In this document: positions 8,063-34,895 of the stretch, in pieces
How positions within the stretch are numbered: position 1 is the first letter of the stretch
Layout of the letters: the number at the start of each line of letters is the position of its first letter
The notes under the pieces: model-generated
What the model was told of the DNA's origin: nothing
The model's database searches: none
What the model saw: the letters and a program-made list of their open reading frames with translations, nothing else
Program-made: the position numbers and the translations under genes
Assembly: GCA_963733195.1 (NCBI GenBank)
Contig: CAVTCR010000037.1
Coordinates: 1 to 34,895 of the forward strand
DNA length: 34,895 nucleotides
Source: an uncultured delta proteobacterium
Lineage (GTDB): Bacteria; Desulfobacterota; Binatia; Bin18
Direction: 5' to 3'

Positions 8063-11000
8063 ATGAAATTCTCTGACATCGTCAAACAAGCCACTACCCT
8101 CCTCCAGGACAAAGGCCAGATTTCTTACCGGATGCTCAAACGCGAGTTCACGCTGGACGACGAGACGCTGGACGACCTCAAAGCCGAACTCATTGAAGTG
8201 GACAGGCTCGCGGTTGACCAAGACGGCAAGATGCTTGTTTGGATAGGGGAAAGGATAAAGGGAGAAAAGGAGAAACGGAGAAACGGCAATACGGAGGGCG
8301 AAAAGGGGAAATGGGCGAAATCAGTGCTAAAGTATCAGTTGCCAGTCCCCAACCCCCAGTCATAGACGCCACCCCACTTAGCCGAACGTATCCGTGCAGT
8401 GTCCGTGGCGGATGGCGAGCGCAAAACCATCACCGCGTTGTTTGCTGATCTAAGGGCTCGACCGCATTGATCGAAGGACTCGACCCCGAAGAAGCGCGGG
8501 CGATTATTGACCCCGCCTTGCAGCTGATGATGGATGCCGTCCATCGCTATGAGGGCTATGTGGCGCAAGCCTTGGGCGATGGCATCTTTGCGCTTGTTCG
8601 GCGCGCCACTTGCCCATGAGGATCACCCCCAACGGGCATTATATGCGGCACTCCGCATGCAAGAGGAGATGCGTCGCTATGCCGACACGTTGCGAGCCAA
8701 AGGACATCCGCCGCTGTTGATGCGGGTCGGGGTGAATACCGGCGAAGTGGTGGTTCGCTCGATCCGCAAGGAGGACTTGCATACCGATTATGTCCCGATG
8801 GGGCACTCCACCAATTTAGCCGCCCGGATGGAACAATTAGCGGCGCCGGGCTCCATTCTTGTCACCGCCCATACCCACAAACTCACGGACGGCTACTTTG
8901 AGTTCAAGAATCTCGGCCAGACACACATCAAAGGAGTAGAAGAGCCGCTGAACGTCTATGAAGTGCTGGGCGCAGGGCCGTTGCGCACCCGACTGCAAGT
9001 CGCTGCCCGCCGGGGGCTGACCCGGTTTGTCGGGCGGCAGAGCGAACTGGAGCAGATGCAGCGGGCTTTTGAGCAAGCCAAGGCGGGGCATGGTCAGATC
9101 GTGGGCGTGATGGGTGAACCTGGACTTGGGCAAGTCGCGGTTGTTCTATGAATTCAAATTGCTCTCCCAAGGCGGCTGTCTGGTGCTCGAAGCCTACTCG
9201 GTCTCCATGGCAAAGCCTCGCCCTATCTGCCGGTAATTGAACTCCTCAAGAGCTACTTCGACATCCAGCCTCAGGACGAGGAGCGCAAACGGCGCGAGAA
9301 GGTCACCGGCAAGGTCTTGACCTTAGACCGCAGCCTCGAAGACACCCTGCCCTATCTGTTTGCCTTGTTGGGCATGGAAGAGCAGCCCTCACCGTTGCAG
9401 CAGATGGACCCGCAGATCCGGCGCAAGCGAACGTTTGAGCCATCAAGAAACTCTTTCTGCGCGAGAGTCTCAACCAACCCTTCATCCTCATCTTTGAAGA
9501 CTTGCATTGGATCGATAGTGAGACACAGGGGTTTCTCGATGTCCTGAGTGAGAGTGTGGCCAGTGCCAAGGTGCTGCTGCTTGGTGAACTATCGCCCCGA
9601 GTATCGCCACGAGTGGGGACAGAAGACGTACTACACCCAACTGCGCTTGGCGCCCTTCGGCAAAGCCGAGGCGGAAGAGTTTCTTGACGCGCCTTGTTGG
9701 GTGAGCCACCGTAGGGGCGACCGGCCATGGTGCGCCCCTACAAGCACTCAAACAGCTCATTCTGGAGAAGACCGAAGGCACGCCGTTTTTCATGGAAGAG
9801 ATCGTGCAGGAATTAGCTGAGCAGGGCGTACTTAGTGCGTGAGCGCGTGGAGCGTCGGCACGTCGCGCCATCTACCAACGGATCTGCATATCCCGACCAC
9901 CGTGCAAGGCGTCCTCGCTGCCCGCATCGACCGCCTCGCTCCAGAAGAGAAAGCCCTGCTCCAGCAGCTCGCGGTCATCGGGCGGGAGTTTCCGCTGAGT
10001 CTGATCCGCCAGGTAATCGCCCAGCCCGAAGAGGAACTATATCGTCTCCTTGCCGTCCCTGCAACACAAAGAGTTTCTCTACGAACAGCCCGCATTTCCC
10101 GAAGTCGAGTACATTTTCAAGCATGCGCTGACCCAGGAAGTCGCCTACAACTCGGTGCTGCAGGAGCGGCGCAAAGTCGTTGCACGAACGCACGGCGCAA
10201 GCGATCGAGCAGCTGTTTCACGACCGGTTAGAGGACACTACAGCGAGTTAGCGCATCACTACAGTCGCAGTGGCAACACCCAGAAGGCAGTAGAGTATCT
10301 CCAGCTTGCTGGACAACAGGCGGTGCAACGGTCGGCCAATACGGAAGCGATCACTCACCTCACCACGGCCCTAGAGCTGCTCAAGACCCTGCCGGACACT
10401 CCCGAGCGCACCCAGCACGAACTCACGCTGCAGCTCACTCTGGGCCGGCGTTGATGAGCCACCAAGGGCTATGCGGCCCCGGAAGTGGAAGCAGCCTACA
10501 CCCGGCGCGCGAGCTGTGCCAGCAGATCGGAGAGACTCCTCAGCTCTTCCCGGTGCTGTGTGGGACTGTGGACGTTTTATACTAGTGCGGGCGGAGTTAC
10601 AGACGGCCCGTGAGCTGGGCGAGCAGCTCCTTACGCTTGGCCCAGCGCGCACAAGACTCCGCTCTCCTTCTGGAAGCCCACAATGCGCTGGGAGACACCT
10701 TAGTACTGGCTAGGAGAGTTTGTCCTCAGCCCGAGAGCACCTAGAGCAGGGCATTGCCCTGTACGATCCCCAGCAGCACCACTCTCTAGCCTTCCTCTAC
10801 GGGGTATGACCCTGGGGTGGCTTGCCGTCTCTATGCAGCCTAGGTCCTGTGGCTCTTGGGCTATCCGGACCAGGCCCTGAAGAGGAGCCACGAGGCGCTC
10901 ACCCTGGCCCAGGAGCTGTCTCACCCCTATAGCCTGGCTTTTGCCCTAGTGCTTTGCTGCCTGTCTCCATCAGTTCCGCCGGGAGGGGCAAGTAGCTCAA

Positions 11001-11631
11001 GAGCGGGCAGAGGCAGCTATGGCGCTCTCTGACGAGCAGGGTTTCCGTTCTGGTTGGCGTGGGGACTATCCTGCAGGGCTGGGCGCTGGCCGAGCAGGGA
11101 CAGGGAGAGGAAGGAATTACCCAGATGCGCCAGGGCCTGGCCGCCTACCAGGCCACGGGGGCAGAGATTGCACGGCCGTATTTTCTTGCCCTGCTGGCCG
11201 AGGCGTATGGGAAAGTGGGCCAGGTAGAAGAAGGGCTGAGCGTGCTGGCCGAGGCGCTGGCTCTGGTAGACAAAACTGGGGAGCGTTTCTACGAGGCGGA
11301 GCTGTATCGGCTGACAGGCGAGCTGACGCTGCAAAAGTTCACAGTCGTCAGAGTCTAAGTTAACAGTCACCAGCCCCCAGCCCCTAACACCTCGCCCCCA
11401 GGCGAGGCCGAAGCGAGCTGTTTCTCAAAGCCATTGAAATTGCTCGAAAGCAACAAGCCAAGTCGCTCGAACTGCGTGCCGCGATGAGCCTGGCGCGGCT
11501 GTGGCAACAGCAAGGCAAGACAGCACAGAGAAGCTCACCAGATGTTATCCGAGATCTACAACTGGTTCACCGAAGGGTTTGACACCAAGGACTTGCAAGA
11601 GGCCAAAGTGCTCTTGGAAGAATTGGCCTGA
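8063..11631 (+). pseudogene. Class III nucleotide cyclase + STAND/AAA ATPase + TPR protein, copy 1; multiply frameshifted as given (may be sequence error)
   Basis: Fragments in order: MKFSDIV N-domain, ERKTITALFAD, YVAQALGDG, RVGVNTGEV, GHSTNLAAR, Walker A GEPGLGKSR, Walker B FEDLHW, FKHALTQEVAY, TPR region, and [22 protein letters not shown] ending at 11631. Confidence 0.9.
9711..9741. repeat. GTAG-type REP hairpin inside cyclase-STAND copy 1
   Basis: GTAGGGGCG-accggccatggtg-CGCCCCTAC with 9-bp terminal inverted repeats. Same protein position as the 34291-34318 palindrome in copy 4. Confidence 0.75.
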
Positions 11632-11643
11632 AATAAAAGGGCG

Positions 11644-12817
11644 GTGGCATCTATGAACGTGACCCATTTGTCTTGCTCGTCATGTCACGCCGAGTATGAG
11701 CCGGGGAGGCTGTACAACCTGTGCCAGCAATGCGGCAAGCCATTGCTCGTCCACTACGACCTAGAGCGTGCTGCGGTAACTTTGACGCGTGCTGCGCTGG
11801 CCGCGCGCGCTGCCACGCTCTGGCGGTATCGTGAAGTGCTCCCGGTCGAGCGAGAAGAGAATATCGTCACCCTTGGGGAGGGCTGGACTCCGTTGCTGCC
11901 CGCGCCACGACTGGGTGAGCAGTTCGGCATGCGCCACCTCTACATCAAGGATGAGTCGTTGAACCCGACGGCATCGTTTAAGGCTCGCGGCATGGCCGTC
12001 GCGGTGTCGATGGCGAAGGAGCTGGGCGCTACGCAAACTCGCCGTGCCGACCGCAGGTAATGCGGGAGGTTCACTGGCAGCATACGCGGCGAGTGCCGGA
12101 CTCGAAGCCTATATCTTCATGCCCCGTGACGTTCCACGAGCCAACCTGATCGAGTGCCAACAGTGCGGCGCCCACGTAACACTGGTGGACGGGGTCATCA
12201 CTGATTGCGGGCGTATCGTTGCGGAACGAAAAGAGCGTGAAGGCTGGTTTGATGTCTCGACCCTCAAGGAGCCCTATCGCATCGAAGGCAAAAAGACGAT
12301 GGGTTACGAACTCGTGGAACAACTGCACGGCGAGTTGCCCGACGTGATCATTTATCCGACAGGCGGAGGCACAGGACTCATCGGCATGTGGAAAGCGTTT
12401 GATGAGATGGAACGCCTGGGCTGGATCGGCGCGAGACGACCACGCATGGTGACCGTCCAAGCGGAAGGGTGTGCCCCGATTGTGCAGGCCTTTACTGCGA
12501 ATACCAACGTGGGCGCCGAGATTACCAATCCCCACACCGTTGCAGCGGGGTTGCGCGTGCCCAAAGCAATCGGCGATTTCCTCATCCTTGACATTCTACG
12601 TCGTAGTGGTGGAACCGCGGTGAGTGTAAGCGATGCCGAGATCATGCAGGCCGTGGCCGACATTGGCGCAACCACAGGGATCTTTGCGGCGCCAGAGGGA
12701 GCAGCGTGTGTGCCGGCGCTGAAAAAACTCCTCGAACGTGGTCAAGTAAAGAAAGAGGAACGCGTGGTATTGTTTAATACCGGTTCGGGACTAAAGTATC
12801 TGGACCTATACGCATAA
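11644..12817 (+). CDS. thrC: Threonine synthase (PLP-dependent, N-terminal Zn ribbon); one frameshift near 12030-12044
   Basis: CSSC..CQQC, LWRYREVLP, TLGEGWTPL, PLP lysine NPTASFKARG, PTAGNAGGSLAAYAA, PYRIEGKKTMGYE, YPTGGGTG, FNTGSGLKY. Confidence 0.88.
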
Positions 12818-12828
12818 GGAGGAACACT

Positions 12829-13238: not shown

Positions 13239-13252
13239 TGCACCGAAGACGG

Positions 13253-14587: not shown

Positions 14588-14937
14588 CTATTTTAATGGC
14601 AAATATTCAACCTTATTCGCGAAATCCTCAAGCTCACCAGCTTTGGCGAGGAATTCCAGATCTTTTATGCATTGGCCGATTGAAACCCTCTCTTGATGCG
14701 CATAAATCACGCCGGCAAAGACCTTTCTGCTCTGCTGCCGTTCTGCTGCCTCGCGTAGCAAGTCGTCGTCTTGAGTGAATAAGATGCGCTCCAGTGCCGT
14801 GGCGCGGTCAAGCAAATCTGGGTCGGAGAACCCCGTGCACCATCCGCCTGGGCAGTCAGAACATCCACCTGACGCAGACGCAGTCCTACAGTGATTGCCT
14901 GTGGAACGTGCACATCCATGTAGAGCTTGACACTCAC
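14588..14937 (-). CDS. DUF5615-like PIN-domain putative toxin; one frameshift
   Basis: MSVKLYMDVHVP...VDVLTAQADG / SDPDLLDRATALERILFTQDDDLL...FAGVIY. GTG start overlaps the TGA of the upstream gene. Confidence 0.82.
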
Positions 14938-15243
14938 GGTAATTTGCCCATTGCCCGCATGCGTTTACGGAAGGGTGAGTCGATGCTGCTTGTACCGCGC
15001 GTACATCAACTTCCTTCACTTGCCGCTCTATTTCCGCGTCTATTGTCGCTTGATGATCATAATAGTAGGAAAGGGCCATGAATTTGCGCTAACGAGAGAT
15101 CAGGATATTGAAAGTGATCTCCTCTGGACTAAAGCCATAAGCGGTCTTATCCAGCACGACTTCGATGACTTTACATTCGTGTCATCAATCCAGGCAATGC
15201 CTCGATAGTCGAGGTGAATATGAGCGGTTTCTGTATGGAGCAT
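14934..15243 (-). CDS. DUF433-family putative antitoxin; several frameshifts
   Basis: Reassembled across frames: MLHTETAHIHLDYRGIAWIDDTNVKVIEVVLDKTAYGFSPEEIHFQYPDLSLAQIH.ALSYYYDHQATIDAEIERQ. It is translationally coupled to the PIN gene and is not a single ORF in the track. Confidence 0.78.
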
Positions 15244-17010
15244 CGCAGTGTATCTCTTAACTGTCTTTTCTTATACCTTACCCATCCAAGGACAGTTCCT
15301 CCAACAGCGCCCTTGCCTCTTGCAGATCTTTGGTATCAAATCCTTCGGTGAACCAGTTGTAGACATCTGACAACAATTTGTGAGCTTCTGGCTGCTTGCC
15401 TTGCTGCTGCCAGAGGCGGGCGAGGCTGGTCGAGGTGCGTAATTCCCAGGACTTGGCTTGTTGCTCGCGGGCAACGTCGAGCGAGGCCAGGTAGTTCTGC
15501 TCCGCGCCGGCGAGGTCGCCTTGAAGCGCAAGCATCCAGCCTTTAAGCCGCAGGATTTCGGCCAGGTACCAGCGCTCTTCCCAGCCCGGCCGCGCAATCT
15601 GCGTGAGACTGTCCTCGATCAACTGCAATCCGCCCTCGATATCCCCGCTCAACGCCAAGCCTTCGGCCAGGACCGCTCGCCAGTACGGCATCCAAAGCTC
15701 GCCGCCATGCGCGTTCCATCGTTTCCATTGCACCCCGCAGCTGTGGAATGCCCTCGGCGAGGCGCCCGGCCCGCAGCCAGGCAATTCCCTTCATCAGCTG
15801 CGCCAGCACATCCGAGATAAAAGGCAAACTATGCGCGCGGCCTAGCCGCTCGGCTTCCTCGACCCGCGCCAGCATCTGCTCGGGTTCACGGCGGTGATCC
15901 CAAACCAGGCCGCCCACGGTGAGCGCCCAAGCCGAGGTCGAAAGGGATGGCCGCGCCGGCGTGCGTGCGCATCGTTGGCATCGCAGAGCTGCACGGCACG
16001 ATCCGGATAGCCCTGCATCCAGGTTCCCAGGGAACCGTGGATGCCGACAGTCACTTTTCGGGTCGGTGTTCATGAGGTCGGCGAGGTGAGCGGTGCTGCT
16101 CCTCGTCATACAGCGCCAGCACTCTGTCGTCCATGCTCGCGGGATGGGTCGAGATCTCCCCGCCAATAGTGGGTGATGCATGCCGCCCAGTGTGCCACGA
16201 TCAACAGATCCGAATCGCCACTGGCCTCTGCAGTCGCCAGCATGTCATTGACCCAGTCCAGCGACTCAGCGACGCGGCCCTGGACCATCACATACATCCA
16301 CAGTCCCCAGTAGATCGGCAGTAACGCCTCGTGGCGGCCGAGGGACTTGGCCAACCCCAGCGCCGGGTGGAGGCTGGTCCACACCTCAGGCGCTCCCCAG
16401 CCTTCGAGCGCCAGCCAAGCCATACCAAGCCGAGTGCGCAGGTCCAGTTCTTTCCCGTCGCGCTCCGGTGACGGCGGCAGCGTGCCGATCAGCGCCATCC
16501 CCTGGTTCAGGTGCGCAATCGCTTCCTTGAGCGCCAGACGTTTGCTGGCTCAGCTCGCCCGCCTGCTGCCAATAGGGAATCGCCTGTACGATGAGGCCCG
16601 CCTCGGTGTAGTGATGCGCGACTAGCTCCGGTTGGGTCTCGACGGTCTGCGGAAACTTCTTCACCAATACTTGCGCTACTTGTTGATGCAACTGCTGGCG
16701 ACGACTCTTGAGCAAGGACTGATAGGCCGTGTCTTGAATAAGCGCATGCTTGAAGAGATACGTTGCCTGGGGCGGTCGCCCACTCTGGTAGACCAGCTCC
16801 GCCTCAACTAATTGCCGTAGCCCCTGCTGCAACGTGTCCTCGGTGAGTGGGGAGACGGCCTGGAGTAACGTCATAGTTAAATTCGCGCCCAATCGTCGCT
16901 CCGACTTGCGCGATCTCTTTGGCTGCGCCGAGCCGATCCAGTCGGGCCATCAATGCATCCTGCAACGTGGCGGGAATGCCCAACCGTAGGGATGACTGGC
17001 CGAGTTTCTC

Positions 17011-17046
17011 TTCAGACTCAATAGACTCTCTAGACTCTACAGACTC
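17011..17046. repeat. 4 x 9-bp tandem repeat (nnnAGACTC) in copy 2 linker
   Basis: TTCAGACTC AATAGACTC TCTAGACTC TACAGACTC, encoding ESVESRESIESE. Confidence 0.75.
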
Positions 17047-17520
17047 CAAGACGTCTTGGTGAGTTCTTCAACAAACAACGGCACCCCATCGGTCTTACTC
17101 ACGATCTGTTGCACGACCTCGGCGGGCAGCGCTCTTGCCGTCCGTGTCGACCTTCTCCACCATCAGTCCCACCTGCGTCCGGCTCAGCCGACTGAGGAGA
17201 ATCTGGCTGAGATAGGAATGAGAACCCCACGGCGGCGTAAACTCAGGCCGAAAGGTCAGTACGGCAAGCACCCGTGTCGTCGGCACTTGCTCCAGAAAGA
17301 GCGTGAGCAATTCGAGAGTAGACGGATCGGCCCAGTGCAAATCCTCCCACGCATACGTCACGGCTTGCTGCTGAGCCTCGGCACAGAGCCAGGTGACGAG
17401 CGCTTCGTGGGTCTTCTCTTTCTGTTTCTGCGGACTCAGAGAGAGGGGAGGATAGCGATCGGGAAGTGGAAGTGACAAAAGAGAAGCAAACAATGGGACC
17501 ATCTCCTGCAGACGGGCAGT

Positions 17521-17595
17521 GTCATTGCGAGGAGCCGGAGGCGACGAAGCAATCTCTGTTTCGGGCAAAGATTGCTTCGCTACGCTCGCAATGAC
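17521..17595. repeat. 75-bp palindromic REP/RPE-like element in frame in the ATPase region of copy 2
   Basis: GTCATTGCGAG...CTCGCAATGAC terminal inverted repeats with an inner CGAAGCAATCT/AGATTGCTTCG stem. It encodes 25 aa (VIASVAKQSLPETEIASSPPAPRND) absent from the aligned region of copy 3. Confidence 0.85.
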
Positions 17596-18265
17596 TTGCA
17601 CCATTGAGTTGTCAGAGAGTCCGTAAGCTCCACTTCTACGCCCCAAGGCATGCTCCAGCTTCTCCAGCTTTTGCTCAGAGGAATCGGTTTGCTGAAACTG
17701 CAAGACTCGCTGCAAATGCTCAAGCACCGGATAGAGCGCACTGTTTTGGTGATACGGCGAACAGCGTAATTCCAGGCAGCTTACACCCTCGTGCTTGAGA
17801 GAGTCCTTGAGCGCTTCCACGAGTCGCGATTTGCCAATACCCGGCTCGCCGCTGAGCAGCACGACCTGCCCTTCCCCGTCTCTTACCCGTTCCCAACGCT
17901 CACGTAACAGCCCAAACTCATGTTCGCGCCCCACAAGCGGGGTGAGGCCTTTGCGTGCGACGACCTGAAACCGGCTTTGCGCTTCACCCTCCTTGACCAC
18001 GCGATAGAGGGTCAGCGGGGTCGCTACCCCTTTGAGTTCTGGTTGTCCGCGGTCCTCACATTCAAACAAGCCTTCCACCAAGCGATAGGTGGTTGCGCTG
18101 ATGACTACGGTATTAGGATCAGCTTGCCCCTGAATGCGCGCGGCAAGGTTGGGTGTCTCGCCTAACGCCAGTAGCTCTCGCTTTACTCCACCTCCCATCT
18201 CGCCAACCACGACAGGACCGGTATGGATGCCGATGCGCACCTGCAAGGGATGGTGGTAACCGTGT

Positions 18266-18298
18266 CCCCTCACCCTGGCCTCTCTCGAGGGGAAGGGA
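18266..18298. repeat. CCCTCACCC-type REP inside the cyclase domain of copy 2
   Basis: CCCCTCACCCTGGCCTCTCTCGAGGGGAAGGGA; a related element is intergenic at 22150-22232. Confidence 0.65.
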
Positions 18299-18927
18299 AC
18301 CTAGTTGCTGAAGTGCCTCGACAATTCCAATCCTGTCCGTACCGCCCGCTGGGCATCATCTTCATGCGCGACGGGATAGCCGAAGTACACCAACAATCCA
18401 TCGCCCAGATATTGCGCAATGTGACCACCAAAGCGTTCAATCACGGCGGCGCTCGTTTCCTGGTAGCCACGTACCACCTCGCGCAATTCTTCGGGATCAA
18501 GTTGCGTCGAGAGCGCAGTCGAGCCCACGAGGTCACAGAACATCACCGTCAATTGGCGGCGTTCGGCTCAGGGACTGGGGGCTGGGGCTGGGTGCTGGGG
18601 ACTGACAACTGGCAACGTGAGAACTGACAACTGCTTTGGTGCTGGGTGGAACTTAGAACTTTGAACTCGGAACTTTGAACTGGCGAAGCCCCGACCCACA
18701 CAAGCACCTTGCCATCTTCATCGACTGCGAGGCGTTTGGCGTCGATCAGGTCCGCCTTGAGGTCCTCTATGTATTCGTCATCGAGTGCAAAGCGGCGCTT
18801 CAAGACGCGGTAGGCCACCCGCCCTTCGCGCTGGAGCAAGTCGATCACTTGGGCCAAAATCTCGTCAAATGTGCTCATCGTTCATCCACGTCGCAGCGCA
18901 GCGAGAATCTCCACCGCGGCTTCCTGA

Positions 18928-23496: not shown

Positions 23497-23531
23497 ATTG
23501 TTTACTCCTCCCAAGAGGTAGTGCTACCCAA

Positions 23532-24971: not shown

Positions 24972-27900
24972 ATGAAATTTTCTGAAATAGTGGCCCAGAC
25001 ACTCGCCTGGCTCCAGCGTGACGGGCGGATATCGTATCGGGCGTTGAAACTAGAGTTTGACCTGAACGATGACGTCCTTGACGCCCTCAAGGAAGAACTC
25101 ATCGAGGCCAAACGCCTGGCCATTGACGAGAATGGCAAGGTGCTTGTTTGGGTAGGAACAGGTGAAAAGGCGAAAAGGGGAAAGGTCTAGCGTCTAGAAC
25201 CAGGGTCTAGAATCCAAAGACCAGTCGGAGTCCCTCAGCACGTCTGGACACTGGACGGTCCATTCGCGCTGAAGGCGAACGACGCCAATTGACGGTGATG
25301 TTCTGTGATGTGGTGGGCTCGACCGCGCTCTCCGAGCAACTCGATCCCGAAGAGTTGCGCGAAGTCGTGCGAGCGTATCAAGAGACCTCCACCACAGTAA
25401 TCCAGCGCTATGACGGACACGTTGCTCAACACCTGGGCGATGGCTTACTGGTATACTTTGGGTATCCCCAAGCGCACGAGGATGATGCACGCTGCCGTAC
25501 GGGCGGGTAAATTATTTGCGGTACAAAAGCATTCCTGGAAGAATACTGCTGACGAAATCCTCCCTGTCCCTCCTTTTCCACCTGTGGCCGGTGGCAGGCC
25601 AGGGGGAACCCAAAAGCCCCCTTAGAGGCCGCGCGCAGCGCGGGGGATTTGGCGGTATGGAAGTTGGGAGGGAATTACAAGTCCGCATTGGCATTCACAC
25701 CGGGTTAGTCGTCATCGGCGAGATCGGCAGCAGTGAGAAACGTGAAATCCTGGCTCTGGGCGAAACACCGAACATCGCCGCTCGCATTCAAGGGCTAGCC
25801 GAGCCGGACACTGTGGTCATCAGCGGAGCGACCTATCACTTAGTGGAAGGGATTGTTCGAGTGCCAGGACCGTGGTCCTCAAGAGTTGAAAGGCATTTCG
25901 ACTCCACTCGCACTGTACCGCGTCACGCGGGAAAGTGAAGCGCAGAACCGCTTTGAGGTTGCGGTCAGTACAGGCCTCACGCCACTGATCGGCAGAGACG
26001 GAGAACTCGGCTTGCTGCACGAGCGGTGGACACAGGCGAAAGGCGGCGAAGGGCAAGTCGTGTTGCTCAGTGGTGAGGCAGGCATTGGCAAATCGCGCTT
26101 AGTGCAGACGCTCAAAGAGCAGGTCATGGCCGAGAGCGCGACCCGCATCGAGTTTCGTTGCTCGCCCTATCATCAGAACAGTGCTTTCTATCCGATCATC
26201 GAGCATCTGCAGCGGCTGTTACAGTTTGCAGCGGGAGGATACGCCGCAGACCAAGTTGACCAAACTTCAGCATGCTCTCATGGCGTATCGCTTTCCCCAG
26301 GCAGATACCTTGCCGCTGTTAGCAGCCTTGCTCTCTCTGCCCCACCCGGAGGGGTATCCACCTCTGACACTGAGTCCGCAAAAGCAGAAGCAGAAGACCC
26401 AAGAAGCGTTAGTGGCGTGGATTGTGGAAGAGGCAGAAAAAGCCGCCGTGTACTGTGCCTGGGAAGATCTGCACTGGGCTGATCCTTCCACGCTCGAGTT
26501 CCTCACGCTCTTCCTCGATCAAATCCCTACTTCCCGTCTGCTGGCCGTGCTGACATTTCGGCCGGACTTCACGCCGCCGTGGCGGTCCCGTTCGCACATC
26601 GCCCAGCTCACGCTCAACCGCTTAGGCCGCAGCAGGTCGAGGCGATGGTGGAGAAAATCACTGATGGTAAACGCTTTCCGCCGAGAAGTGATGCAACAGA
26701 TCGTCGACCAAGACTGACGGAGTGCCGCTGTTTGTCGAAGAGTTAACCAAGATGGTATTGGAGTCAGGGTTGCTGAGTAACAGTAGAGGATCGACTACGG
26801 CTATCGGTCCTCTCCCTCCACTTGGCGATTCCGTACGACGTTGCAGGATTCGCTGATGGCGCGGCTTGATCGGCTAGGACCAGCCAAAGAGATTGCCCAA
26901 CTGGGCGCGACCCTCGGGCGGGAATTTCGCTATGACCTGCTCCACGCTGTCTCCCCCTTAGACGAAGGGACCTTACAGCAGGGGCTGAAGCAGTTAGTCG
27001 AAGCGGAACTGCTCTATCAGCGCGGGTTGCCTCCGCAGGCACCTATCTCTTCAAGCATGCCCTGGTGCAGGACACGGCCTATCAATCCTTACTGAAGAGC
27101 ACACGCCAGCAGATCCACCAGCAGATTGCCCAGGTGTTAGAGCAGCGCTTCACAGAGACAGTCGAGACCCATCCCGAACTGCTGGCGCATCATTACACCG
27201 AGGCGGGTCTCATCAGCACAGGCCATTCCCTATTGGCAGCAGGCAGGGCAGCGAGCCACCCAGCGCTCGGCCAATGTGGAAGCGATTGCTCACCTCACCA
27301 AAGGGCTGGAGTTGCTCAAGACCCTGCCGGAGACGCCTGAGCGCGACCCAACAAGAGCTGACGCTGCAAATCGCCTTGGGTGTTCCGTTGATCGCGACGA
27401 AGGGCTTTGCCGCGCCAGAAGTCGGAGCACATCTATACCCGGGCACGAGAGCTATGCCAGCAAATAGGAGAGACTCCTGCAGCTCTTCCCGGTGCTGCGG
27501 GGATTATGGGTAGTTTTATTTGTGCGGAGCGGAGTTGCAGACAGCCCGTGAGCTGGCAGAGCAGCTCCTCAGTCTTGGCCCACAACGTCCAAGATTCTTC
27601 GCTTCCTCTTAGAGGCCCACAGTGCACTGGGGATGACCTTGTTATCTTTGGGAGAGTTGGCTCCGCCCCAGAGCACGCTGGAGCAAGGCATTGCACTCTA
27701 TGATCCCCAACAGCATCATGCCTCACGCTTTCTTGTATGGGGCTATGACCCTGGAGTGGATTGCCTCGCCTTGACGGCCTTGAGCCTGTGGATGCTTGGT
27801 TATCCTGGATCAGGCGCTCAAGAGACTGTCACGAGGCACTCACCTTAGCCCAGGAGCTGTCTCACCCATACAGTCTGGCCATTACCCTAGTGCTATGCTG

Positions 27901-28627
27901 CACAGCTCCATCAGCTTCGCCGGGAGGCGTAACGAGTCCAAGAGCGGGCGGAGGCAGCGATTACGCTTGGCAACCGAGCACGGATTTCCGCACTGGCGTG
28001 GGTACGTATCTGGCGGTGGCTGGGCACTGAGTCGAGCAAGGCCAAGGAGAGGAAGGGATGCCCAGATGCGCCAGGGTCTGGAGAGCTATGAGGCGACGGG
28101 AGCGAGTTAGACACGATCATATTTTCTTGCCCTTATTGCTGAGGCGTATGGGAAAGGAGGACAGGTGGAGAAGGGACTGAGCGATGCTGGATGAGGCGCT
28201 GGCTCAAGTAGACAAAACTGGGGAGCGTTGGAGCGCATGACCGAGGCGCTGACGCGGTAGACATGACTGGCGAGCGACCCACGAAGCGGAGCTGTATCGG
28301 CTGAACGGGGAGCTCTCGCTCCGAATGGGTGAACGGGAGAGCGGGCGAACGGGCGAAAAAGAGTTAATCGCCCCATCGCCCAGTCGCCTTGTCGCCCTCT
28401 CGTCTCCAGAGGCGTGTTTCCACAAAGCCATTGAGATTGCTCAACGGCAGCAAGCGAAATCCTGGAACTCCGCGCAACGATCGAGCCTCGCGCGACTGTG
28501 GCAACAACAAGGTAAGCATCACGAAGCACACAAGATGTTATCTACCATCTATAACTGGTTCACGGAAGGATTTGATACCAAAGACCTGCAAGAAGCGAAG
28601 GCACTGATTGATGAGCTGGAACGGTAA
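24972..28627 (+). pseudogene. Class III nucleotide cyclase + STAND/AAA ATPase + TPR protein, copy 3; multiply frameshifted as given
   Basis: MKFSEIV N-domain, [37 protein letters not shown], Walker A GEAGIGKSR, WEDLHWAD, TPR region, and [23 protein letters not shown]. Confidence 0.9.
25555..25655. repeat. Composite repeat-derived insertion in the cyclase domain of copy 3
   Basis: AAATCCTCCC...GGGGGAACC...GCCCCCTT...GGGGGATTT arms with a nested CCGCGC-GCA-GCGCGG hairpin, just before [10 protein letters not shown], the same site as the copy 2 insertion. Confidence 0.55.
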
Positions 28628-28635
28628 ACTATCAT

Positions 28636-28974
28636 ATGAGTCCACAAACCGATCCTATTGTCCGTATTCAAGAGTTGGTGCGGACTAAACACTACCGCAT
28701 TGGTTTGCATGCGGTGCGACACATGGTCGAGGAAGGGTTCGATGAAAACCAACTTTTGGAAGCAGTAAGAGGGAAACTACGGATAGTGGAGGAATATCTA
28801 GCGGAGTCACGATATCTGCTGCTAGGCTATTTCCACTTCACGCTGAAGACCATTTCGCCTCTGCATTTATTGTGCGACCTGTCCAAATCGAATGTGGTAG
28901 ATATTGTCACTGCTTATATCCCTCAGCGTCCCTGGTGGCTCAGTCCAATCCGAAGAGGGAGAGAAAGACAATGA
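28636..28974 (+). CDS. DUF4258-like putative toxin
   Basis: YRIGLHAVRHMVEEGF...IVEEY...YLLLG...PLHLLC...IVTAYIP..PWW pattern. Starts 8 bp after the stop of copy 3. Confidence 0.78.
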   Translation: MSPQTDPIVRIQELVRTKHYRIGLHAVRHMVEEGFDENQLLEAVRGKLRIVEEYLAESRYLLLGYFHFTLKTISPLHLLCDLSKSNVVDIVTAYIPQRPWWLSPIRRGRERQ

Positions 28975-29222
28975 GAGACTTCCTACGCTCAACCTGTTCT
29001 GAGTGCGGTGGCGCTGTGCGTTCCCGTACCATTACCCAAGAGTTCGAACGCGAGGGATTACGCGTCTCGGTTTCTGGCATCCGCGCACTAGTCTGCACGA
29101 AGTGCGAAGCGGTATACTTTGAGCCTGGTGGCGCACAAGCCTTGGTAGAAGCAGTGAATAGCTTGTTTGTCCTGGCTAAGAGAAACCGCCAGCATAAAGG
29201 GAAACTTGTCAGCGCAATATGA
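28971..29222 (+). CDS. YgiT/MqsA-type zinc-finger protein (putative antitoxin)
   Basis: ATGA overlap with the upstream gene; CSECGG...VSGIRALVCTKCEAVYF. No C-terminal HTH is evident. Confidence 0.8.
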   Translation: MRDFLRSTCSECGGAVRSRTITQEFEREGLRVSVSGIRALVCTKCEAVYFEPGGAQALVEAVNSLFVLAKRNRQHKGKLVSAI

Positions 29223-29253
29223 GAAGACGTTAAGAATCACCAGGAGAATAGAC

Positions 29254-30404
29254 ATGCAGCGGAGTACTAATCGTATTCTCACCACTCACTGCGGCAGCTT
29301 AGCCCGCCCTGCGGATCTGCTCGATCTGATGAAGGCGAAAGTCAACGGCCAACCATACGATCACAATGCCTATGCCAGGCGAGTGCAGAGCGCTGTCGCC
29401 GAGATTGTTCGCAAGCAAGTCGAAACTGGAATCGACATTGTAACAGATGGTGAGCAGAGCAAGCCTGGGTTCTTCACTTATGTGAACGAACGGCTCACTG
29501 GGTTTGTGCCCAAGCCTGGTGCTCGCTTTTCAATGTTCGCTGATGAAGTCGCCGCCTTTCCAGAGTACTACGAAGAATACTTTCGCCAGGCGATGCTGGG
29601 CGGATCAGTTGCGTCAGTTGTCCCGATGGTGTGCACTGGTCCTGTTACTTATCAAGGACAAGAGGCGCTACAGCGAGACATCGATAACCTCAAAGCAGCA
29701 CTGGCAGGAGTGAATCCCGAGGCAGTTTTCATGCCCGCTGTAGCTCCGAGCGGTGTGGGCACGAACGAATACTACCGCACCGAAGAAGAATACTTGCACG
29801 CAGTCGCAGAAGCCCTACGTACAGAGTACCAAGCAATCGTTAATGCCGGCTTCCTCGTGCAGATTGACGACCCATTCCTTACCGATGTCTACAGCGATTC
29901 CTCTTTGAACAACACCGAGAAACGCAAGAAAGCTGAGATGTATGTCGAGGCACTCAACTATGGCTTGCGAGGGATTCCGGTGGAGAAGGTGCGTTTCCAC
30001 ACCTGTTACGGCATCAATGAGGGACCTCGCGTCTACGATGCTCAGTTGAAGGACGTCTTGGAAGCTATGTTAAAAGTCATGCTGGTGCCTATTCCTTTGA
30101 GGCCGCCAACGCACGGCACGAACATGAATACCATCTCTGGGAAACCGTCAAGCTGCCCGAGGGCAAGGTGCTCATTCCTGGGGTGATTACGCATGCGAGT
30201 AATATTGTCGAACATCCAGAATATATTGCCGAGCGCATCGTTCGCTATGCCAAGCTCGTGGGTCGAGAACACGTGATTGCCGGAGCTGATTGTGGCTTTT
30301 CGTCACAAGCAACCTATCATCCAGAAGTTCATCCGACCGTCGTGTGGGCTAAATTTCAAGCGATGGCAGAAGGCGCACGTTTAGCTACAAAACAGCTCTG
30401 GTAG
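29254..30404 (+). CDS. Cobalamin-independent methionine synthase II family protein (second MetE-like paralog); frameshift near 30075
   Basis: AGGAG RBS; MQRSTNRILTTHCGSLARP, VTDGEQSK, VQIDDP, HTCYG, then in a shifted frame FEAAN..HEHE, LIPGVITH and AGADCGF. Confidence 0.9.
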
Positions 30405-30446
30405 TTACGGTGACGAATGACATCTGCATGCGACTAAGGATTCCCC

Positions 30447-30474
30447 GTAGAGACGCGACATGTCGCGTCTCTAC
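30447..30474. repeat. GTAG-type REP palindrome, intergenic between convergent genes
   Basis: Identical to 4940-4967. Confidence 0.9.
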
Positions 30475-30480
30475 AAAGCC

Positions 30481-31251
30481 CTATTTCTCAACAAGACGAA
30501 AACGCACACCGCAGATATTGACCATATCATCAGCGACGCGTTTTCCACGACGTTCCGCAGCAGCGAGTAATCGCTCTCGATTTGCAACGATCAGATCCAC
30601 TCCGCCAAGTCCTTCACCACGACCATCCGTATCTTTGACAAAGCGAACATCGGCATTGTCAAAGTGGATATTCTGCGCCCCTGCGGCATCCGCCTTCACT
30701 GGCAGTTCGACAATTTGCCCCCACCGGTTGGCCAGTTCTGTGGGATCAGGCGACTGAATCTCTGCCGCTGCGATGCCACGTACTACTTCAGTACGAACCG
30801 CAGATTTCCAATTCTTGCTTGCTGGCATCCACGCCCCATCAAGAGCGTTGTCACCAATCTGTTCATCGATTTCCAGAAGGCAGCCACCAGTGTCACGCGG
30901 GTGGAGCTGCATAATGCGGAATTCTGGCTCGTCATGCTCCATGGCCTTGCGAATGCCAAGTTCCGCAGCGCGACGTTTGCGCGGTGCATGTTCATCACAC
31001 TGGCAGATCACCATGTAACCACCATCGCCTTTACGCCGGTCGAGGTAGCGACCGCCAGCCGTGCCTTCGCGAATTGGCGCGACCACTTCAAGAAATTGAC
31101 TCCCAACCGGGAACACTGCGTTCTCGAGCCCAAAGGTTTTCACCGCCGGGTCACGAAAGGCAACCTCAAGACCAAACACCTCACGAATGTCATCGACAAC
31201 AGGAGCGAGTTCCCGTGCAATCAAGGCAATCTGTCGTACTCGAAGCCACAT
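30481..31251 (-). CDS. VOC/glyoxalase-like family protein
   Basis: LRVRQIALIARELAP...FGLENAVFPVGSQFLEVVAP...GDGGYMVICQ...QLHPRDTGG; AAGGAGG RBS. Confidence 0.8.
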   Translation of the reverse strand: MWLRVRQIALIARELAPVVDDIREVFGLEVAFRDPAVKTFGLENAVFPVGSQFLEVVAPIREGTAGGRYLDRRKGDGGYMVICQCDEHAPRKRRAAELGIRKAMEHDEPEFRIMQLHPRDTGGCLLEIDEQIGDNALDGAWMPASKNWKSAVRTEVVRGIAAAEIQSPDPTELANRWGQIVELPVKADAAGAQNIHFDNADVRFVKDTDGRGEGLGGVDLIVANRERLLAAAERRGKRVADDMVNICGVRFRLVEK

Positions 31252-31368
31252 AGAATGTCCTCCTTTTGATCAGCGTCCCTTAGATCAGGGAGAGGCTATC
31301 ATGGGGTTACCAAGAATCAAATGAGAGTTTCCTCTTTCCAATGTGATATGCTGCGCAGGGGAGGAGGC

Positions 31369-31845
31369 ATGAGCGAACCCATAGTGGATACCCTGGAGAC
31401 AAACCAACTGCTCCTGTTTCTTTGTACTGGCAACTACTACCGCAGTCGCTTTGTGGAACTTCTGTTTAACCATCAGGCCATCCGAGCGGCGCTGTCCTGG
31501 CGTGCGGAATCCCGTGGGATTGCGCTGGATCTTGGGGTGAATAATCGCGGGCCAATCTCTCTGGCGGCGCTGGCAGCACTGCAGGAGCGTGGGATCGTAC
31601 CCGCAAAGCCAGTGCGATTCCCGCAGCAGGTACAAGCAGAGGACTTTGCCCGTGCCCAGCGTATTATTGCGCTCGATGAGGCAGAGCATCGCCCGATATT
31701 GACCCACCGCTTTCCCCAATGGCTTGAGCGGGTTGAATTTTGGCAAGTGCCTGACGTACCACGCACTCCAGTGACCGCCGCCGTAGCATTGATGACTACC
31801 GCAGTACAGGAACTGATGCGGACACTCGTGGACTCGGACTCATGA
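31369..31845 (+). CDS. Low-molecular-weight phosphatase family protein
   Basis: LFLCTGNYYRSRF (CX5R P-loop), AESRG, IIALDE; GGAGG RBS before ATG 31369. Confidence 0.85.
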   Translation: MSEPIVDTLETNQLLLFLCTGNYYRSRFVELLFNHQAIRAALSWRAESRGIALDLGVNNRGPISLAALAALQERGIVPAKPVRFPQQVQAEDFARAQRIIALDEAEHRPILTHRFPQWLERVEFWQVPDVPRTPVTAAVALMTTAVQELMRTLVDSDS

Positions 31846-31910
31846 TACAGTGGGCTAATGACATGTGATGAACAAAATCGATAATCAGAGTTCTTGGTGG
31901 GACGGGCTTC

Positions 31911-31970
31911 GGTAGGACAGGTATCTTGCCTGTCTTCATCCGCAGAAACAGGCTGGAAGCCTATTCTACC
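31911..31970. repeat. GTAG-type REP dimer, intergenic
   Basis: GGTAGGACAGG-TATCTTG-CCTGTC ... ACAGGC-TGGAA-GCCTATTCTACC; imperfect terminal inverted repeats with two internal hairpins. Confidence 0.6.
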
Positions 31971-32051
31971 AACACATAACCAAACTTGGTGGTCAAAACT
32001 CATTAGTCAGAGTACCCGCCCGTCCGAGACGAATGGACTAACACGCTTCTC

Positions 32052-32537
32052 ATGAGGATCTCTATTCCCCTGCTCCGCGCTGCGTATCGTTGCGTCTATC
32101 TGTTGTTACGTGTCTATTGGTTTATCGTGCGTCCGCAGGTGCGGGGGGTAATTTGTCTGCTCGTCCACGAGAATCATTTCTTACTCATTCGCAATACGTA
32201 TGGCCGTCAAAGCTGGACGATGCCGGGCGGCATGATGAAACGAACAGAGGACCCAGAGGTCGCCGTACGGCGCGAGGTGCAGGAAGAAGTCGGCCTTCGC
32301 CTTGAGCATGTCCACTCTCTCGGCCAGTTTACCGGGCGCCAGGCATACCGACGCGATACCATTACAGTGTTTACGGCGCAGGTGCCGAACAGGGTTGTCC
32401 ATCTTGATCCGGGGGAAATTCTAGAGGCGCGCTGGTTTCCCCTGGCAGCGTTGCCACCACTCTCGGGGTATGCCCAACGCGTCGTTCAGCTATGGCAGTC
32501 TTGGTCGCGTAACACTCTCCCGACTTCACCACAGTAA
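32052..32537 (+). CDS. Nudix hydrolase
   Basis: Nudix box GGMMKRTEDPEVAVRREVQEEVGL; EILEARWF. Confidence 0.9.
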   Translation: MRISIPLLRAAYRCVYLLLRVYWFIVRPQVRGVICLLVHENHFLLIRNTYGRQSWTMPGGMMKRTEDPEVAVRREVQEEVGLRLEHVHSLGQFTGRQAYRRDTITVFTAQVPNRVVHLDPGEILEARWFPLAALPPLSGYAQRVVQLWQSWSRNTLPTSPQ

Positions 32538-32581
32538 GCACTATCCTTGCGCAGGCTCTAATATGACAATGAGGTTAAACT

Positions 32582-32668
32582 CTTCGACCTTCGACTACGC
32601 TCAGGACAGGCTTCGCTTCGTGTAGTTTATCCTAAGACTAACAAAGGGCGCAGGCTGAGCGAGAACGG
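32582..32668. repeat. Degenerate nested palindromic repeat upstream of copy 4
   Basis: CTTCGAC-CTTCGACTACGCTCAGGACAGG...TATCCTAAG..AAAGGG...CTGAGCG; short direct repeat plus partially inverted arms. Confidence 0.4.
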
Positions 32669-32724
32669 TTTCATCACACGGTAGAGTGTGTATGATGTTA
32701 GGCATTTCAACATAGACTGTTGCG

Positions 32725-34895
32725 ATGCATTGCCCAAGTTGCCAATTTGACAATCCCGCGGGAGTGAAGTTCTGCATTGAGTGTGGAGCGTCGCTCAAAA
32801 ACCAGTGCTCTGCATGTGGAGTAGAGAATTTGCCGCAGGCCAAATTTTGCGGCGAATGCGGCGCGCCCCTGACGGGAAAACAACCGGCGAAAAGGAAACC
32901 GACTTCGGACTCTCGGCCCCCAGTGAGCTACACCCCGCGACATCTTGCGGAACGGATTCTGGCCGAGCAGGTGGCACTGGAAGCGCGTGGCGCGCCGGAC
33001 GGAGAACGCAAGACCATCACCGCGCTGTTTGCCGACATCAAAGATTCCACCGCGCTGATCGAAGATCTTGATCCCGAAGACGCGCGCCGCATTATCGATC
33101 CAGTGTTACAAGTCATGATGGACGCCGTGCATCGTTACGAAGGCTATGTCGCGCAGTCTTTGGGGGATGGCATCTTCGCGCTGTTTGGTGCTCCCATTGC
33201 CCATGAAGATCATGCGCACCGCGCGCTCTACGCGGCCTTGCTGATGCAGGAGGAAAGCCGGAAACAGGCCGAGCGACTCCGTTTTGAAAAAGGCATCAAC
33301 GTCCAGATTCGCGTCGGCATCAACACCGGCGAGGTGGTGGTGCGCTCGATCCGTAAAGATGATCTCCACACTGATTACGTGCCGATTGGTCACTCCACTA
33401 ACATCGCGTCCCGCATGGAGAGCCTGGCGACGCCAGGGACGATCGTGGTCAGCGAGCATACTCACAAATTGACCGACGGATACTTTGAGTTTACGTCGCT
33501 GGGCGCGGCGCAGATTAAAGGCGTGAGTGAACCGCTCACGATCTATGAGGTGCGTGGGGTTGGTCCGTTGCGTACGAAGTTACAGGTGGCGGCCCGGCGT
33601 GGGCTGGCCCGCTTTATCGGGCGCCAGCGGGAAATGGAGGTGTTACAAGCCGCTTTGCTCCAGGTCAAATCTGGACATGGACAAATTGCCGGGGTGATGG
33701 GCGAGCCGGGCGTGGGAAAGTCTCGCTTGCTCCATGAATTCAAATTGCTCCACCAGGCCGGCTGTCTGATTCTGGAAACTTTTTCCGTCTCCCACGGCAA
33801 AGCTTATCCCTATCTGCCGTTGATCGATCTGCTCAAAAACTATTTTCAGCTCACTAATCAGGATGACGAACGTAAGCGGCGGGAGAAAATCACTGGCAAA
33901 GTGCTGACCCTTGATCGCTCGTTGGAAGAGATCTTGCCCTATCTGTTGCATCTCCTGGGCAGCGCCGAGCCGACGTCGCCGTTGCAACAGATGGACCCAC
34001 AGATTCGCCGCAAGCGTACGCTGGAAGCGATCAAGCGGTTGTTAATCCGCGAGAGTCTCAACCAGTCGCTCGTCTTGATCTTTGAAGATTTGCACTGGTT
34101 GGACAATGAGACACAAGCGTTTCTCAGCTTGCTCGGCGAGAGCATTGCCAGCACGAGAATATTGCTACTGGTCAACTATCGACCCGAGTATCGGCACGAG
34201 TGGGGCAACAAGACGTACTACACGCAATTGCGGCTCGATCCACTGGGCAAACCAGACGCTGAGGAAATGCTGACGGCGATGTTGGGAAATATAGAGACGT
34301 TGCATGCAACGTCTCTACGACAGATGATTCTCGACAAAACCGAAGGTAATCCCTTCTTCATGGAAGAAATCGTACAGGCGTTGGCGGAGCAAGGTGTACT
34401 GGCGCGCGACGGCGTAGAGACGCGACATGTCGCGTCTCTACCGGCGGAGTTGCATCTGCCCCCCACGGTCCAGGCCGTCCTCGCCTCGCGCATCGACCGC
34501 CTGCCGCCGGACGAGAAAGCGTTCCTGCAAACCCTGGCTGTCATCGGCAAAGAATTCTCGCTCGGCTTGGTCAAACAAGTTGCGAATCAATCTGAAGATA
34601 CACTCCAACAGCACCTCTCTCGACTACGCGATGCGGAGTTTATCTACGAACAACCAACCTTTCCGGACGTAGCGTATGTATTCAAGCATGCACTGACGCA
34701 AGAAGTCGCATACAACTCGCTGCTGCAGGAGCGGCGCAAAGTGTTACACGAACGAGCGGCCACAGCGATCGAGACACTATTTCACAATCGGTTAGAGGAT
34801 CAATACAGCGAACTCGCATCACACTACAGCCGTAGCGGGAACACGCAAAAGGCAGTGGACTACCTCGGCTTGGCTGGGCAGCAAGCCGTGCAGCG
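32725..34895 (+). CDS. Double zinc ribbon + class III cyclase + STAND/AAA ATPase (+TPR) protein, copy 4; open frame to the window end
   Basis: Translated by hand; it is absent from the ORF track because there is no stop in the window. MHCPSCQFDNPAGVKFCIECG..CSACGVEN..AKFCGECG, ERKTITALFAD, YVAQSLGDG, GHSTNIASR, GEPGVGKSR, FEDLHW, FKHALTQEVAY. Confidence 0.93.
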   Translation, partial: MHCPSCQFDNPAGVKFCIECGASLKNQCSACGVENLPQAKFCGECGAPLTGKQPAKRKPTSDSRPPVSYTPRHLAERILAEQVALEARGAPDGERKTITALFADIKDSTALIEDLDPEDARRIIDPVLQVMMDAVHRYEGYVAQSLGDGIFALFGAPIAHEDHAHRALYAALLMQEESRKQAERLRFEKGINVQIRVGINTGEVVVRSIRKDDLHTDYVPIGHSTNIASRMESLATPGTIVVSEHTHKLTDGYFEFTSLGAAQIKGVSEPLTIYEVRGVGPLRTKLQVAARRGLARFIGRQREMEVLQAALLQVKSGHGQIAGVMGEPGVGKSRLLHEFKLLHQAGCLILETFSVSHGKAYPYLPLIDLLKNYFQLTNQDDERKRREKITGKVLTLDRSLEEILPYLLHLLGSAEPTSPLQQMDPQIRRKRTLEAIKRLLIRESLNQSLVLIFEDLHWLDNETQAFLSLLGESIASTRILLLVNYRPEYRHEWGNKTYYTQLRLDPLGKPDAEEMLTAMLGNIETLHATSLRQMILDKTEGNPFFMEEIVQALAEQGVLARDGVETRHVASLPAELHLPPTVQAVLASRIDRLPPDEKAFLQTLAVIGKEFSLGLVKQVANQSEDTLQQHLSRLRDAEFIYEQPTFPDVAYVFKHALTQEVAYNSLLQERRKVLHERAATAIETLFHNRLEDQYSELASHYSRSGNTQKAVDYLGLAGQQAVQ
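34291..34318. repeat. REP-variant palindrome in frame in copy 4
   Basis: ATAGAGACGTTGCATGCAACGTCTCTAC with a 26-bp perfect core; encodes IETLHATSL. Confidence 0.85.
34414..34441. repeat. GTAG-type REP palindrome in frame in copy 4
   Basis: Identical to the intergenic copies at 4940 and 30447; encodes VETRHVASL. Confidence 0.9.

Follow-up and report, generated by a model that had tools for sequence, protein, structure and literature searches.

In-frame repetitive extragenic palindromes (REPs) are already known (PMC3733652, PMC3184786, PMC6006769), and so are cases in which the flanks of genes for RAYT (TnpA-REP) transposases have exchanged one REP class for another (PMC3686654). The present study concerns REPs and other palindromic or tandem repeats in the coding sequences of a large family of cyclase-STAND-TPR genes, four of which (copies 1-4) lie on a 34,895-nt stretch of DNA (the window). 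The window is the entire contig C37 of the genome of an uncultured delta proteobacterium (GCA_963733195.1; 6.95 Mb in 87 contigs; hereafter G000). An earlier note, made from the letters of the window, had proposed that this family has fixed slots repeatedly filled by different repeat families, either as a diversification or recombination mechanism or as tolerated sinks.

The closest described system is subclass 2.4 of TnpA-REP (RAYT group 4), in which double-foot REPs are found in frame in the tnpA-REP gene itself (Quentin et al. 2018, PMC6006769). As in our family, the REP is of the GTAG...CTAC type and is inserted in frame at one variable position with heterogeneous content, and a RAYT gene of G000 (contig C26) likewise holds an in-frame REP. 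However, the host gene in subclass 2.4 is the transposase, whereas here it is an unrelated signalling family of about 170 members with seven slots and several repeat classes. The E. coli TnpA-REP cleaves at CT and catalyzes recombination in vitro; in the accessible part of that work, cleavage and strand transfer in vitro are reported only for groups other than subclass 2.4 (PMC8266576).

Intragenic GTAG and CGTC REPs that are translated in frame have been described by Di Nocera, De Gregorio and Rocco (2013, PMC3733652), including two different REPs near one recB site in two Xanthomonas species, for which flexible loops were proposed. Those REPs, in contrast, are spread over unrelated genes (many of them for DNA repair), mostly at different sites; the supplement has a single 'cyclase' row (a diguanylate cyclase), and the accessible text describes no family-wide slots, overwriting or length filter. 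Rickettsia palindromic elements also add peptides to expressed proteins (PMC3733652, PMC3184786), but they do so in unrelated single-copy genes, whereas the GTAG REPs of G000 avoid other coding DNA and often replace sequence rather than lengthen it. The REP orthoswitch known from orthologous RAYT genes (PMC3686654) likewise substitutes a REP of another class where the position is conserved; however, these positions are extragenic RAYT flanks, while in our family they are coding, and the frame records the geometry of replacement. Compared with diversity-generating retroelements, which combine a reverse transcriptase, template and variable repeats and adenine-specific changes, the slot variants described below are different whole palindromes and not adenine variants. 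In the literature searched (subscription journals were largely outside its coverage), family-wide slots that several repeat classes overwrite were not described; within that literature, the concentration of REPs in one family and their turnover there appear to be new.

Concentration of GTAG REPs in one gene family

A frameshift-aware alignment of G000 to profiles built from 59 intact open reading frames (ORFs) of relatives revealed 172 loci of the cyclase-STAND-TPR family (456,679 bp, 6.6% of the genome; 96 near full length), which split into subfamilies A and B. The relatives G001, G005, G010 and G011 also have a large family; in several others it is small or was not detected.

The GTAG REPs of G000 consist of a long palindrome with a 5' GTAG foot and a 3' CTAC foot. 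A strict detector identified 105 of these double-foot REPs in G000, compared with 0 and 2 in two codon-shuffled genomes. (A previous relaxed detector was dropped: 85 of its 299 matches were shuffle matches, and three loose patterns matched ordinary genes by chance.) Forty-three of the 105 lie in family loci and 62 outside. We then applied one coding test to all of them, requiring an open frame and a coding score on both 90-nt flanks; 24 of the 43 family REPs passed, as did none of the 62 others. The enrichment over other coding sequences that the earlier note had proposed to look for is therefore present. With a laxer threshold, 25 family REPs and one non-family REP pass, the latter being located inside a RAYT gene. 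The sensitivity of the test was 51% at 1495 random family positions and 49% at 1402 random other positions. At the density found in the family, ~326 coding REPs would be expected in the ~5 Mb of other coding DNA, where we found none (p = 3e-27, a value that overstates the confinement because REP events are related rather than independent). In the relative G011, 0 of 38 non-family REPs passed with the model trained on G000; these 38 are what remained among the matches listed (50 of 112) after 12 had been assigned to family genes by coordinates. An insertion of the Rickettsia type across many unrelated genes can accordingly be rejected for both genomes, for G011 among the matches listed.

Two simple causes of this confinement were considered and dismissed. 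High copy number alone is no explanation, because a luciferase-like family of G000 (150 matches of 175 candidates) belongs to the REP-free remainder. Nor do the family genes lie in repeat-rich islands: 0 of the 62 extragenic REPs are found within 1 kb of them and 7 within 3 kb, against 5.1% and 10.9% expected.

The confinement holds for GTAG REPs and not for every repeat class. Outside the family, 1 of 50 DUF559-type repeats and 21 of 321 heptamer arrays passed the coding test, and they sit in related STAND and cyclase-TolB genes as well as in a few housekeeping-like genes. Lone non-GTAG repeats are in frame in ordinary genes of G000 at C5:32939, C62:50236, C21:36997, C56:111901 and C62:304609, which we take to be flavoprotein-, tsaD-, prmC-, proRS- and kdsB-like genes. 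The cyclase-TolB-TPR genes form a second high-identity family in G000 (20 PxxPSIxVLPF sites) with heptamer-coded linkers.

Position, frame and length of the slots

After all paralogs of G000 and those of its relatives had been collected and aligned, the repeats proved to be positionally clustered in seven slots: the N-linker, the cyclase segment before VRIG, s470 (just after Walker A), s540, s1, s2 and a TPR position near the C-terminus. The cyclase slot and s540 are used in subfamily B, s470 and s1 in subfamily A, and s2 in both. As their fillers comprise GTAG REPs, DUF559-type repeats, a CGTC-type dimer and heptamer arrays, the idea of fixed slots refilled by different repeat families was borne out.

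The register of the insertions is narrow. At s470 the left junction is invariant in 13/13 cases, and the right junction is invariant in 18/24 cases at s1 and in 30/41 at s2 of subfamily A; furthermore, 98 of the 102 REPs in intact genes share one of the two open frames. Slot s470 is preceded by TTG, TTT or TTC in 18/18 cases (extragenic REPs are flanked by TTT more often than by any other triplet); no triplet is shared by the flanks of s1 and s2. Length is restricted as well. All 21 REPs at s470, s1 and s2 of G011 are 28-mers, compared with 14 of 38 extragenic ones (p 6e-7), and 27- and 29-mers are absent from these three slots; the 27-mers that dominate outside genes occur only at s540, there with a shifted left junction. 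This length pattern is predicted by arm-to-arm overwriting combined with a frame filter. In G000, the most frequent extragenic type makes up 12 of the 62 REPs outside the family and 0 of the 43 in slots. The ancestral segment has frequently given way to the repeat at s2 and s540, in some cases without any change in length.

In a REP-free outgroup, the slots fall at the 73rd-98th percentile of variability and are almost constant in length. Heptamer periodicity, in turn, was observed in 65% of 249 N-linkers and 59% of 234 TPR slots of this lineage, and in 0/32 and 0/15 of those of the Binataceae-like outgroup. The N-linker and TPR slots are not empty inverted-arm cassettes, since no excess over shuffles was detected (0.31 vs 0.35 and 0.16 vs 0.10). 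Near-complete genes with a strict REP number 20/27 in G010, 15/26 in G011, 8/11 in G001, 9/22 in G005, 32/104 in G000, 2/9 in G002, 1/16 in G003, 0/5 in G008 and 0/32 in the outgroup, where the counts of the relatives refer to best-scoring subsets and not to entire repertoires.

Probable inheritance of position and exchange of content

The place of each slot appears to go back to one or a few seeding events and to have been inherited since. Inheritance from a single ancestral event had been named in the earlier note as something that would speak against recurrent filling; it applies in part to the position, but not to the content, which is probably exchanged in place. Indeed, there are 26 sequence variants among 36 REPs at s1 and 40 among 58 at s2 (errors of the G000 assembly included), and the variants at s470 are genome-specific. 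On a FastTree tree of 137 type A genes (G000 left out), parsimony requires 45 and 53 variant changes at s1 and s2, and 19 and 21 changes between filled and empty; these counts are inflated because of recombination and a mixed 'other' class. Per slot, the filled/empty state changes 9-21 times on the tree. A shared variant raises the identity of the flanks only within ~5 codons.

One pair of genes catches a slot in both states. Copy 2 is 97-100% identical to L305, a gene of G003, over ~75 codons up to the edge of s540, then carries a cassette like that of the paralog at C38:9896, and is L305-like again thereafter; the dimer in this slot matches extragenic copies by 96% over 56 nt. At the DNA level, copy 2 (window 16900-18200, minus strand) and the G003 gene are ~90-99% identical, although G003 is listed as another genus with 10% contamination; this similarity across genera suggests either recent transfer or a binning issue.

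Slot stems decay in some genomes. Near-perfect stems were found in 24/29 slot REPs of G010 and 24/36 of G011, and in 1/8 of G003 (three of them at noise level); decay is seen in G002, G003 and G008. Some decayed copies of G002 and G003 retain the stem while both GTAG feet are changed. These are not members of a hidden family with GTCG or GTTG feet, as counts in G002 and G003 rise only to 24 and 8 when such feet are admitted.

Identity and constraint of the host family

A domain search with the translation of copy 4 gave a double zinc ribbon, a class III cyclase and an AAA_16 STAND domain, and the TPR part is visible in the C-terminal ORF of copy 2 and in full-length ORFs of relatives. Guanylate_cyc, AAA_16 and TPR domains thus occur in one gene with catalytic residues intact, which makes this a class III cyclase-STAND-TPR family; the mycobacterial Rv0386 is an example of this type. 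The cyclic product is uncertain, because Gln (residue 142 of copy 4, in QSLGDG) replaces the usual substrate-selecting Lys in 53 of the 55 REP-bearing members counted. The C-terminal part of the TOMM kinase/cyclase fusion TIGR03903 has the same order of cyclase, AAA_16 and TPR, but our family differs in lacking the kinase, in its ~170 copies and in this Gln. Membership in TIGR03903 was ruled out: the scores (311, 417 and 632 bits) are below the cut-off of 705.75, all matches begin at model position 282, and there is no N-terminal kinase domain. PADLOC gave generic cyclase-domain matches to PycC models alone, and a role in defence would be putative.

The family genes are under purifying selection. 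A rough counting method applied to 159 pairs gave a median dN/dS (ratio of nonsynonymous to synonymous changes) of 0.064 for the core. Among the 37 REP-bearing type A genes examined for them, 35-37 retain the catalytic and Walker residues, and in relatives gene breaks affect 14/67 REP-bearing and 19/86 REP-free genes.

Repeat families and their candidate source genes

The RAYT genes that the earlier note had suggested looking for are present on contigs C26 and C62. GTAG REPs flank them (at C26:75217 and on both sides of the C62:139132 gene), and the same is true in G009 and G011. Their proteins score 71.7 and 64 against NF047646 (cut-off 80), and their motifs (NHLH, WQ and YIAMNP or YIQTNP; reference motifs NH[IFV]H, WQ and YIxNNP) resemble those of TnpA-REP subclass 2.4. 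Next to the RAYT genes of G000, the exact GTAGAGACG subtype carried by copy 4 was not observed. The single short DUF559 gene of G000 is flanked by the repeat type that fills the cyclase slot of copy 2 and many s1 slots (assigned by eye). Heptamer-type arrays lie upstream of all eight four-helix-bundle (PF05635) genes shown, several of which also have mirror arrays downstream (by eye). For the CGTC-type dimer, no cognate gene was found in G000; a short GIY-YIG gene is adjoined by other hairpins. In G011, a REP is located a few codons upstream of a uvrA-like start at L245 (C10:85998), which echoes the uvrA link in PMC3733652.

How the slots may be filled

We consider it probable, with some reserve, that the slots were seeded once or a few times and were then overwritten in register by short-patch exchange with paralogs and extragenic copies. 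This explanation builds on the observed enrichment, on register and frame, on the exclusion of frame-shifting lengths, on the number of variants per slot, on replacement at s2 and s540, on one sharp-edged filled/empty pair and on the constraint; the short reach of linkage to the flanks, the variability of the slot positions in the outgroup and the presence of cognate RAYT genes also favour it. A repeat captured during repair would persist only if it is in frame at a tolerant position. The conserved flanks of ~170 paralogs, together with the arms common to REP variants, could then provide homology for very short conversion tracts, and RAYT nicks in single-stranded REP DNA may supply the free ends, by analogy to the E. 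coli enzyme in vitro. Selection would act mainly as a filter for frame and folding; the process would be mostly neutral for the host, with the peptides as passengers. The 'tolerated sinks' of the earlier note are right insofar as the positions are tolerant and variable, but random insertion into tolerant loops is insufficient on its own, because it fails to give both the fixed register and the lack of REPs in the other coding DNA.

Several observations weigh against this explanation. Slot and extragenic REPs differ in their variant spectra. GTAG REPs are missing from the cyclase-TolB family (36 regions, ~75% identity), so that homology between paralogs is insufficient without seeding. In G008, 59 strict REPs were counted, but a near-perfect stem was found in only 1 of 11 slot REPs; a rich extragenic pool is therefore no guarantee of refreshment, and the notion that a REP-rich genome implies fresh slots is broken. 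Copy 2 and L305 are a single case in an error-rich assembly, and the pair does not give the direction of change. No conversion or insertion was caught within a population, where the slots were not spanned by soil contigs of 98-99% identity (17 public runs, each with a share of at most 0.12; contigs from five compared, none bridging a slot; one RNA run uninformative). Four-fold degenerate sites speak for turnover, as they are identical in 221/233 and 238/257 cases inside REPs coding for the same peptide (0.95 and 0.93) and in 334/693 and 361/700 cases in their flanks (0.48 and 0.52), but the pairs were picked for an identical peptide, and recent rewriting and selection on the hairpin are inseparable here. 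Finally, judged by variability and sequence pattern, slot s2 might be the 'wing' of a winged helix and the other slots loops; the single-sequence structure model (mean pLDDT, a per-residue confidence score, of 37) was unusable, and a PDB profile search with the STAND part gave 0 matches.

It is unlikely that we are dealing with a domesticated diversification system, in which the host keeps the repeats since RAYT nicking or variable peptides diversify an NLR-like receptor repertoire. The near-exclusive confinement of GTAG REPs to the family would fit such a system, and the repertoire is in fact mosaic: in G000 a significant change-point was detected for 71 of the 990 pairs within type A and 54 of the 1127 within type B, of which 52 and 30 fall at the STAND/TPR junction (alignment columns 887-1013), and the dN/dS of the TPR part is 0.43 compared with 0.064 in the core. 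Paralogs thus swap their TPR sensor regions at a conserved junction, and the breakpoints, 60-140 codons downstream of s2, leave room for nick-initiated tracts. However, the slots themselves are not enriched in breakpoints (type A 0.085 vs 0.134 expected; type B 0.148 vs 0.15), and tract ends lie at slots in 3/36 and 1/9 cases (4.8% expected). Because breakpoints cluster at the STAND/TPR junction and not at REPs, REP slots as crossover sites and a REP-guided shuffling machine are not supported, the recombination mechanism of the earlier note found no support, and sensor swapping appears independent of REPs. Moreover, the REP slots are in the cyclase and STAND parts rather than in the variable TPR repeats, and they decay in three relatives and are free of REPs in the outgroup. 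Just as doubtful is a combination in which repeat nucleases (RAYT, perhaps also the DUF559 and four-helix-bundle proteins) drive a homing-like spread and the host co-opts the cassettes, the loop peptides tuning the STAND switch and hairpin nicks starting TPR swaps.

Selection of the hairpin as RNA or DNA (pausing of ribosomes between domains, mRNA processing or decay), restraining a risky signalling protein, would account for the conservation of synonymous sites in slot REPs far above that of their flanks and for some decayed copies that hold the stem though both feet change. We regard it as rather improbable: s1 is empty in 35/130 paralogs and s2 in 36/127, some fillers fold no better than shuffles, and stems decay in three genomes. 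There is little to recommend the view that each slot was filled independently, by a new insertion at a target site defined by its sequence. The triplets before s470 and the repeated filled/empty changes on the tree speak for it; s1 and s2, however, have no common triplet, unrelated repeat classes occupy the same slots, and independent insertion would admit any length and both open frames, unlike what is observed. An artefact of assembly or polishing in a long-read genome rich in repeats, which the heavily frameshifted family genes of G000 might suggest, can practically be dismissed as the cause of the phenomenon, because intact ORFs of 950-1230 residues in G005, G010, G011 and G001 have in-frame fillers in these slots too, although single G000 alleles may hold errors. 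Short-patch overwriting of seeded slots hence remains our preferred explanation.

The four copies in the window

The features of the window and the candidate source genes are listed in Table 1. The positions that the earlier note gave for the individual repeats were all reproduced. One 28-bp palindrome is identical in two places between convergent genes and in slot s2 of copy 4, and a variant of it begins 123 bp upstream in the same gene. Both are in frame within 723 open codons; copy 4, which had been called intact, is so only as far as visible, because the contig end cuts the gene. The hairpin in s1 of copy 1 was confirmed, and the degenerate one in its s2 (z 0.25) folds no better than shuffles, yet it aligns to a REP of the genome. 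Different repeats do occupy the cyclase segment before VRIG in copies 2 and 3 (in the latter at about 25553-25650); neither is a GTAG REP, neither alone folds better than shuffles, and outside the family they have 2 short matching places (copy 2) and 19 (copy 3). The CGTC-type dimer of copy 2 (75 bp, z -7.05) has 58 places outside the family. This dimer, the 9-mer array of copy 2 and the heptamer arrays of the N-linker and TPR slots had not been mentioned in the earlier note.

Copies 1-3 carry 19-31 frameshifts each. As the 96 family genes of G000 have 1658 frameshifts and 36 in-frame stops, an indel-dominated profile, we read these as assembly errors. Real pseudogenisation is disfavoured by this ratio and by L305, which lacks the breaks of copy 2 in the aligned part, and was not settled by reads.

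A pair of DUF4258 regions (14588-15200 and 28636-29222) and other small toxin-antitoxin-like genes are found near the family genes; genome-wide, such genes are often located 3' of them (~30 of 90 downstream neighbours, counted by eye). In a small dispersed repeat that precedes copy 4 (32588-32610), 23 bases are absent from one soil contig of depth 2.9 that otherwise matches at 98%, which hints weakly at repeat polymorphism between strains.

Table 1. Family genes, slots and REPs of the window, and candidate source genes elsewhere in G000 (positions without a contig name refer to the window)
Feature	Position	Strand	Remarks
Extragenic double-foot GTAG REP, 28 bp	4940..4967	.	directly after DUF4345 stop, between convergent genes
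Identical extragenic REP	30447..30474	.	between methionine-synthase-like gene (+) and glyoxalase-like gene (-)
Copy 1, type A cyclase-STAND-TPR gene	8063..11632	+	29 frameshifts, probably assembly errors
Copy 1, N-linker slot, heptamer-type arrays	8243..8416	+	
Copy 1, slot s1, GTAG REP	9711..9741	+	noisy form of VGATGRSPL variant; fold z -3.5
Copy 1, slot s2, degenerate or error-ridden REP	9847..9875	+	
Copy 1, TPR slot, heptamer array	11329..11423	+	
Copy 2, type B cyclase-STAND-TPR gene	15278..18878	-	close counterpart L305 in G003
Copy 2, N-linker slot, heptamer arrays	18565..18695	-	
Copy 2, cyclase slot	18266..18300	-	one arm of repeat type flanking the G000 DUF559 gene
Copy 2, slot s540	17506..17664	-	159 nt rather than 45; holds in-frame CGTC-type hairpin dimer (17521-17595); L305 slot empty
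Copy 2, slot s2	16972..17049	-	9-mer tandem array replacing ancestral segment
Copy 3, type B cyclase-STAND-TPR gene	24972..28627	+	31 frameshifts
Copy 3, N-linker slot	25152..25276	+	
Copy 3, cyclase slot	25515..25677	+	composite dispersed repeat, 19 matching places outside family
Copy 3, TPR slot, heptamer array	28319..28420	+	
Copy 4, type A cyclase-STAND-TPR gene	32725..34895	+	double zinc ribbon, class III cyclase, AAA_16 STAND; open to contig end
Copy 4, slot s1	34291..34318	+	REP variant, read as IETLHATSL
Copy 4, slot s2	34414..34441	+	REP identical to 4940 and 30447 copies, read as VETRHVASL
HHRRS-type RAYT gene	C26:75262-75882	+	REP in frame, read VGAQHAAPL
HHRRS-type RAYT gene	C62:139066-139647	-	likely degenerate REP in another frame
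PF05635 genes with upstream arrays	C53:98001, C62:337157, C50:197724, C63:35727, C53:41378, C84:36049, C52:83201, C7:79628		

Significance

How REPs spread in vivo is still open, and replacement between genes leaves little trace. Coding slots, by comparison, record its geometry: fixed junctions, one frame, wrong lengths excluded, very short tracts, and replacement instead of addition. With hundreds of paralogs in several genera, the family provides many replicates of repeat spread, and its slots show selfish repeats writing new peptide into proteins that are under purifying selection. With ~170 copies and swapped TPR sensors, the family would behave like a putative receptor repertoire. If the swapping in place is true, the family genes are likely to be a readable record of REP spread.

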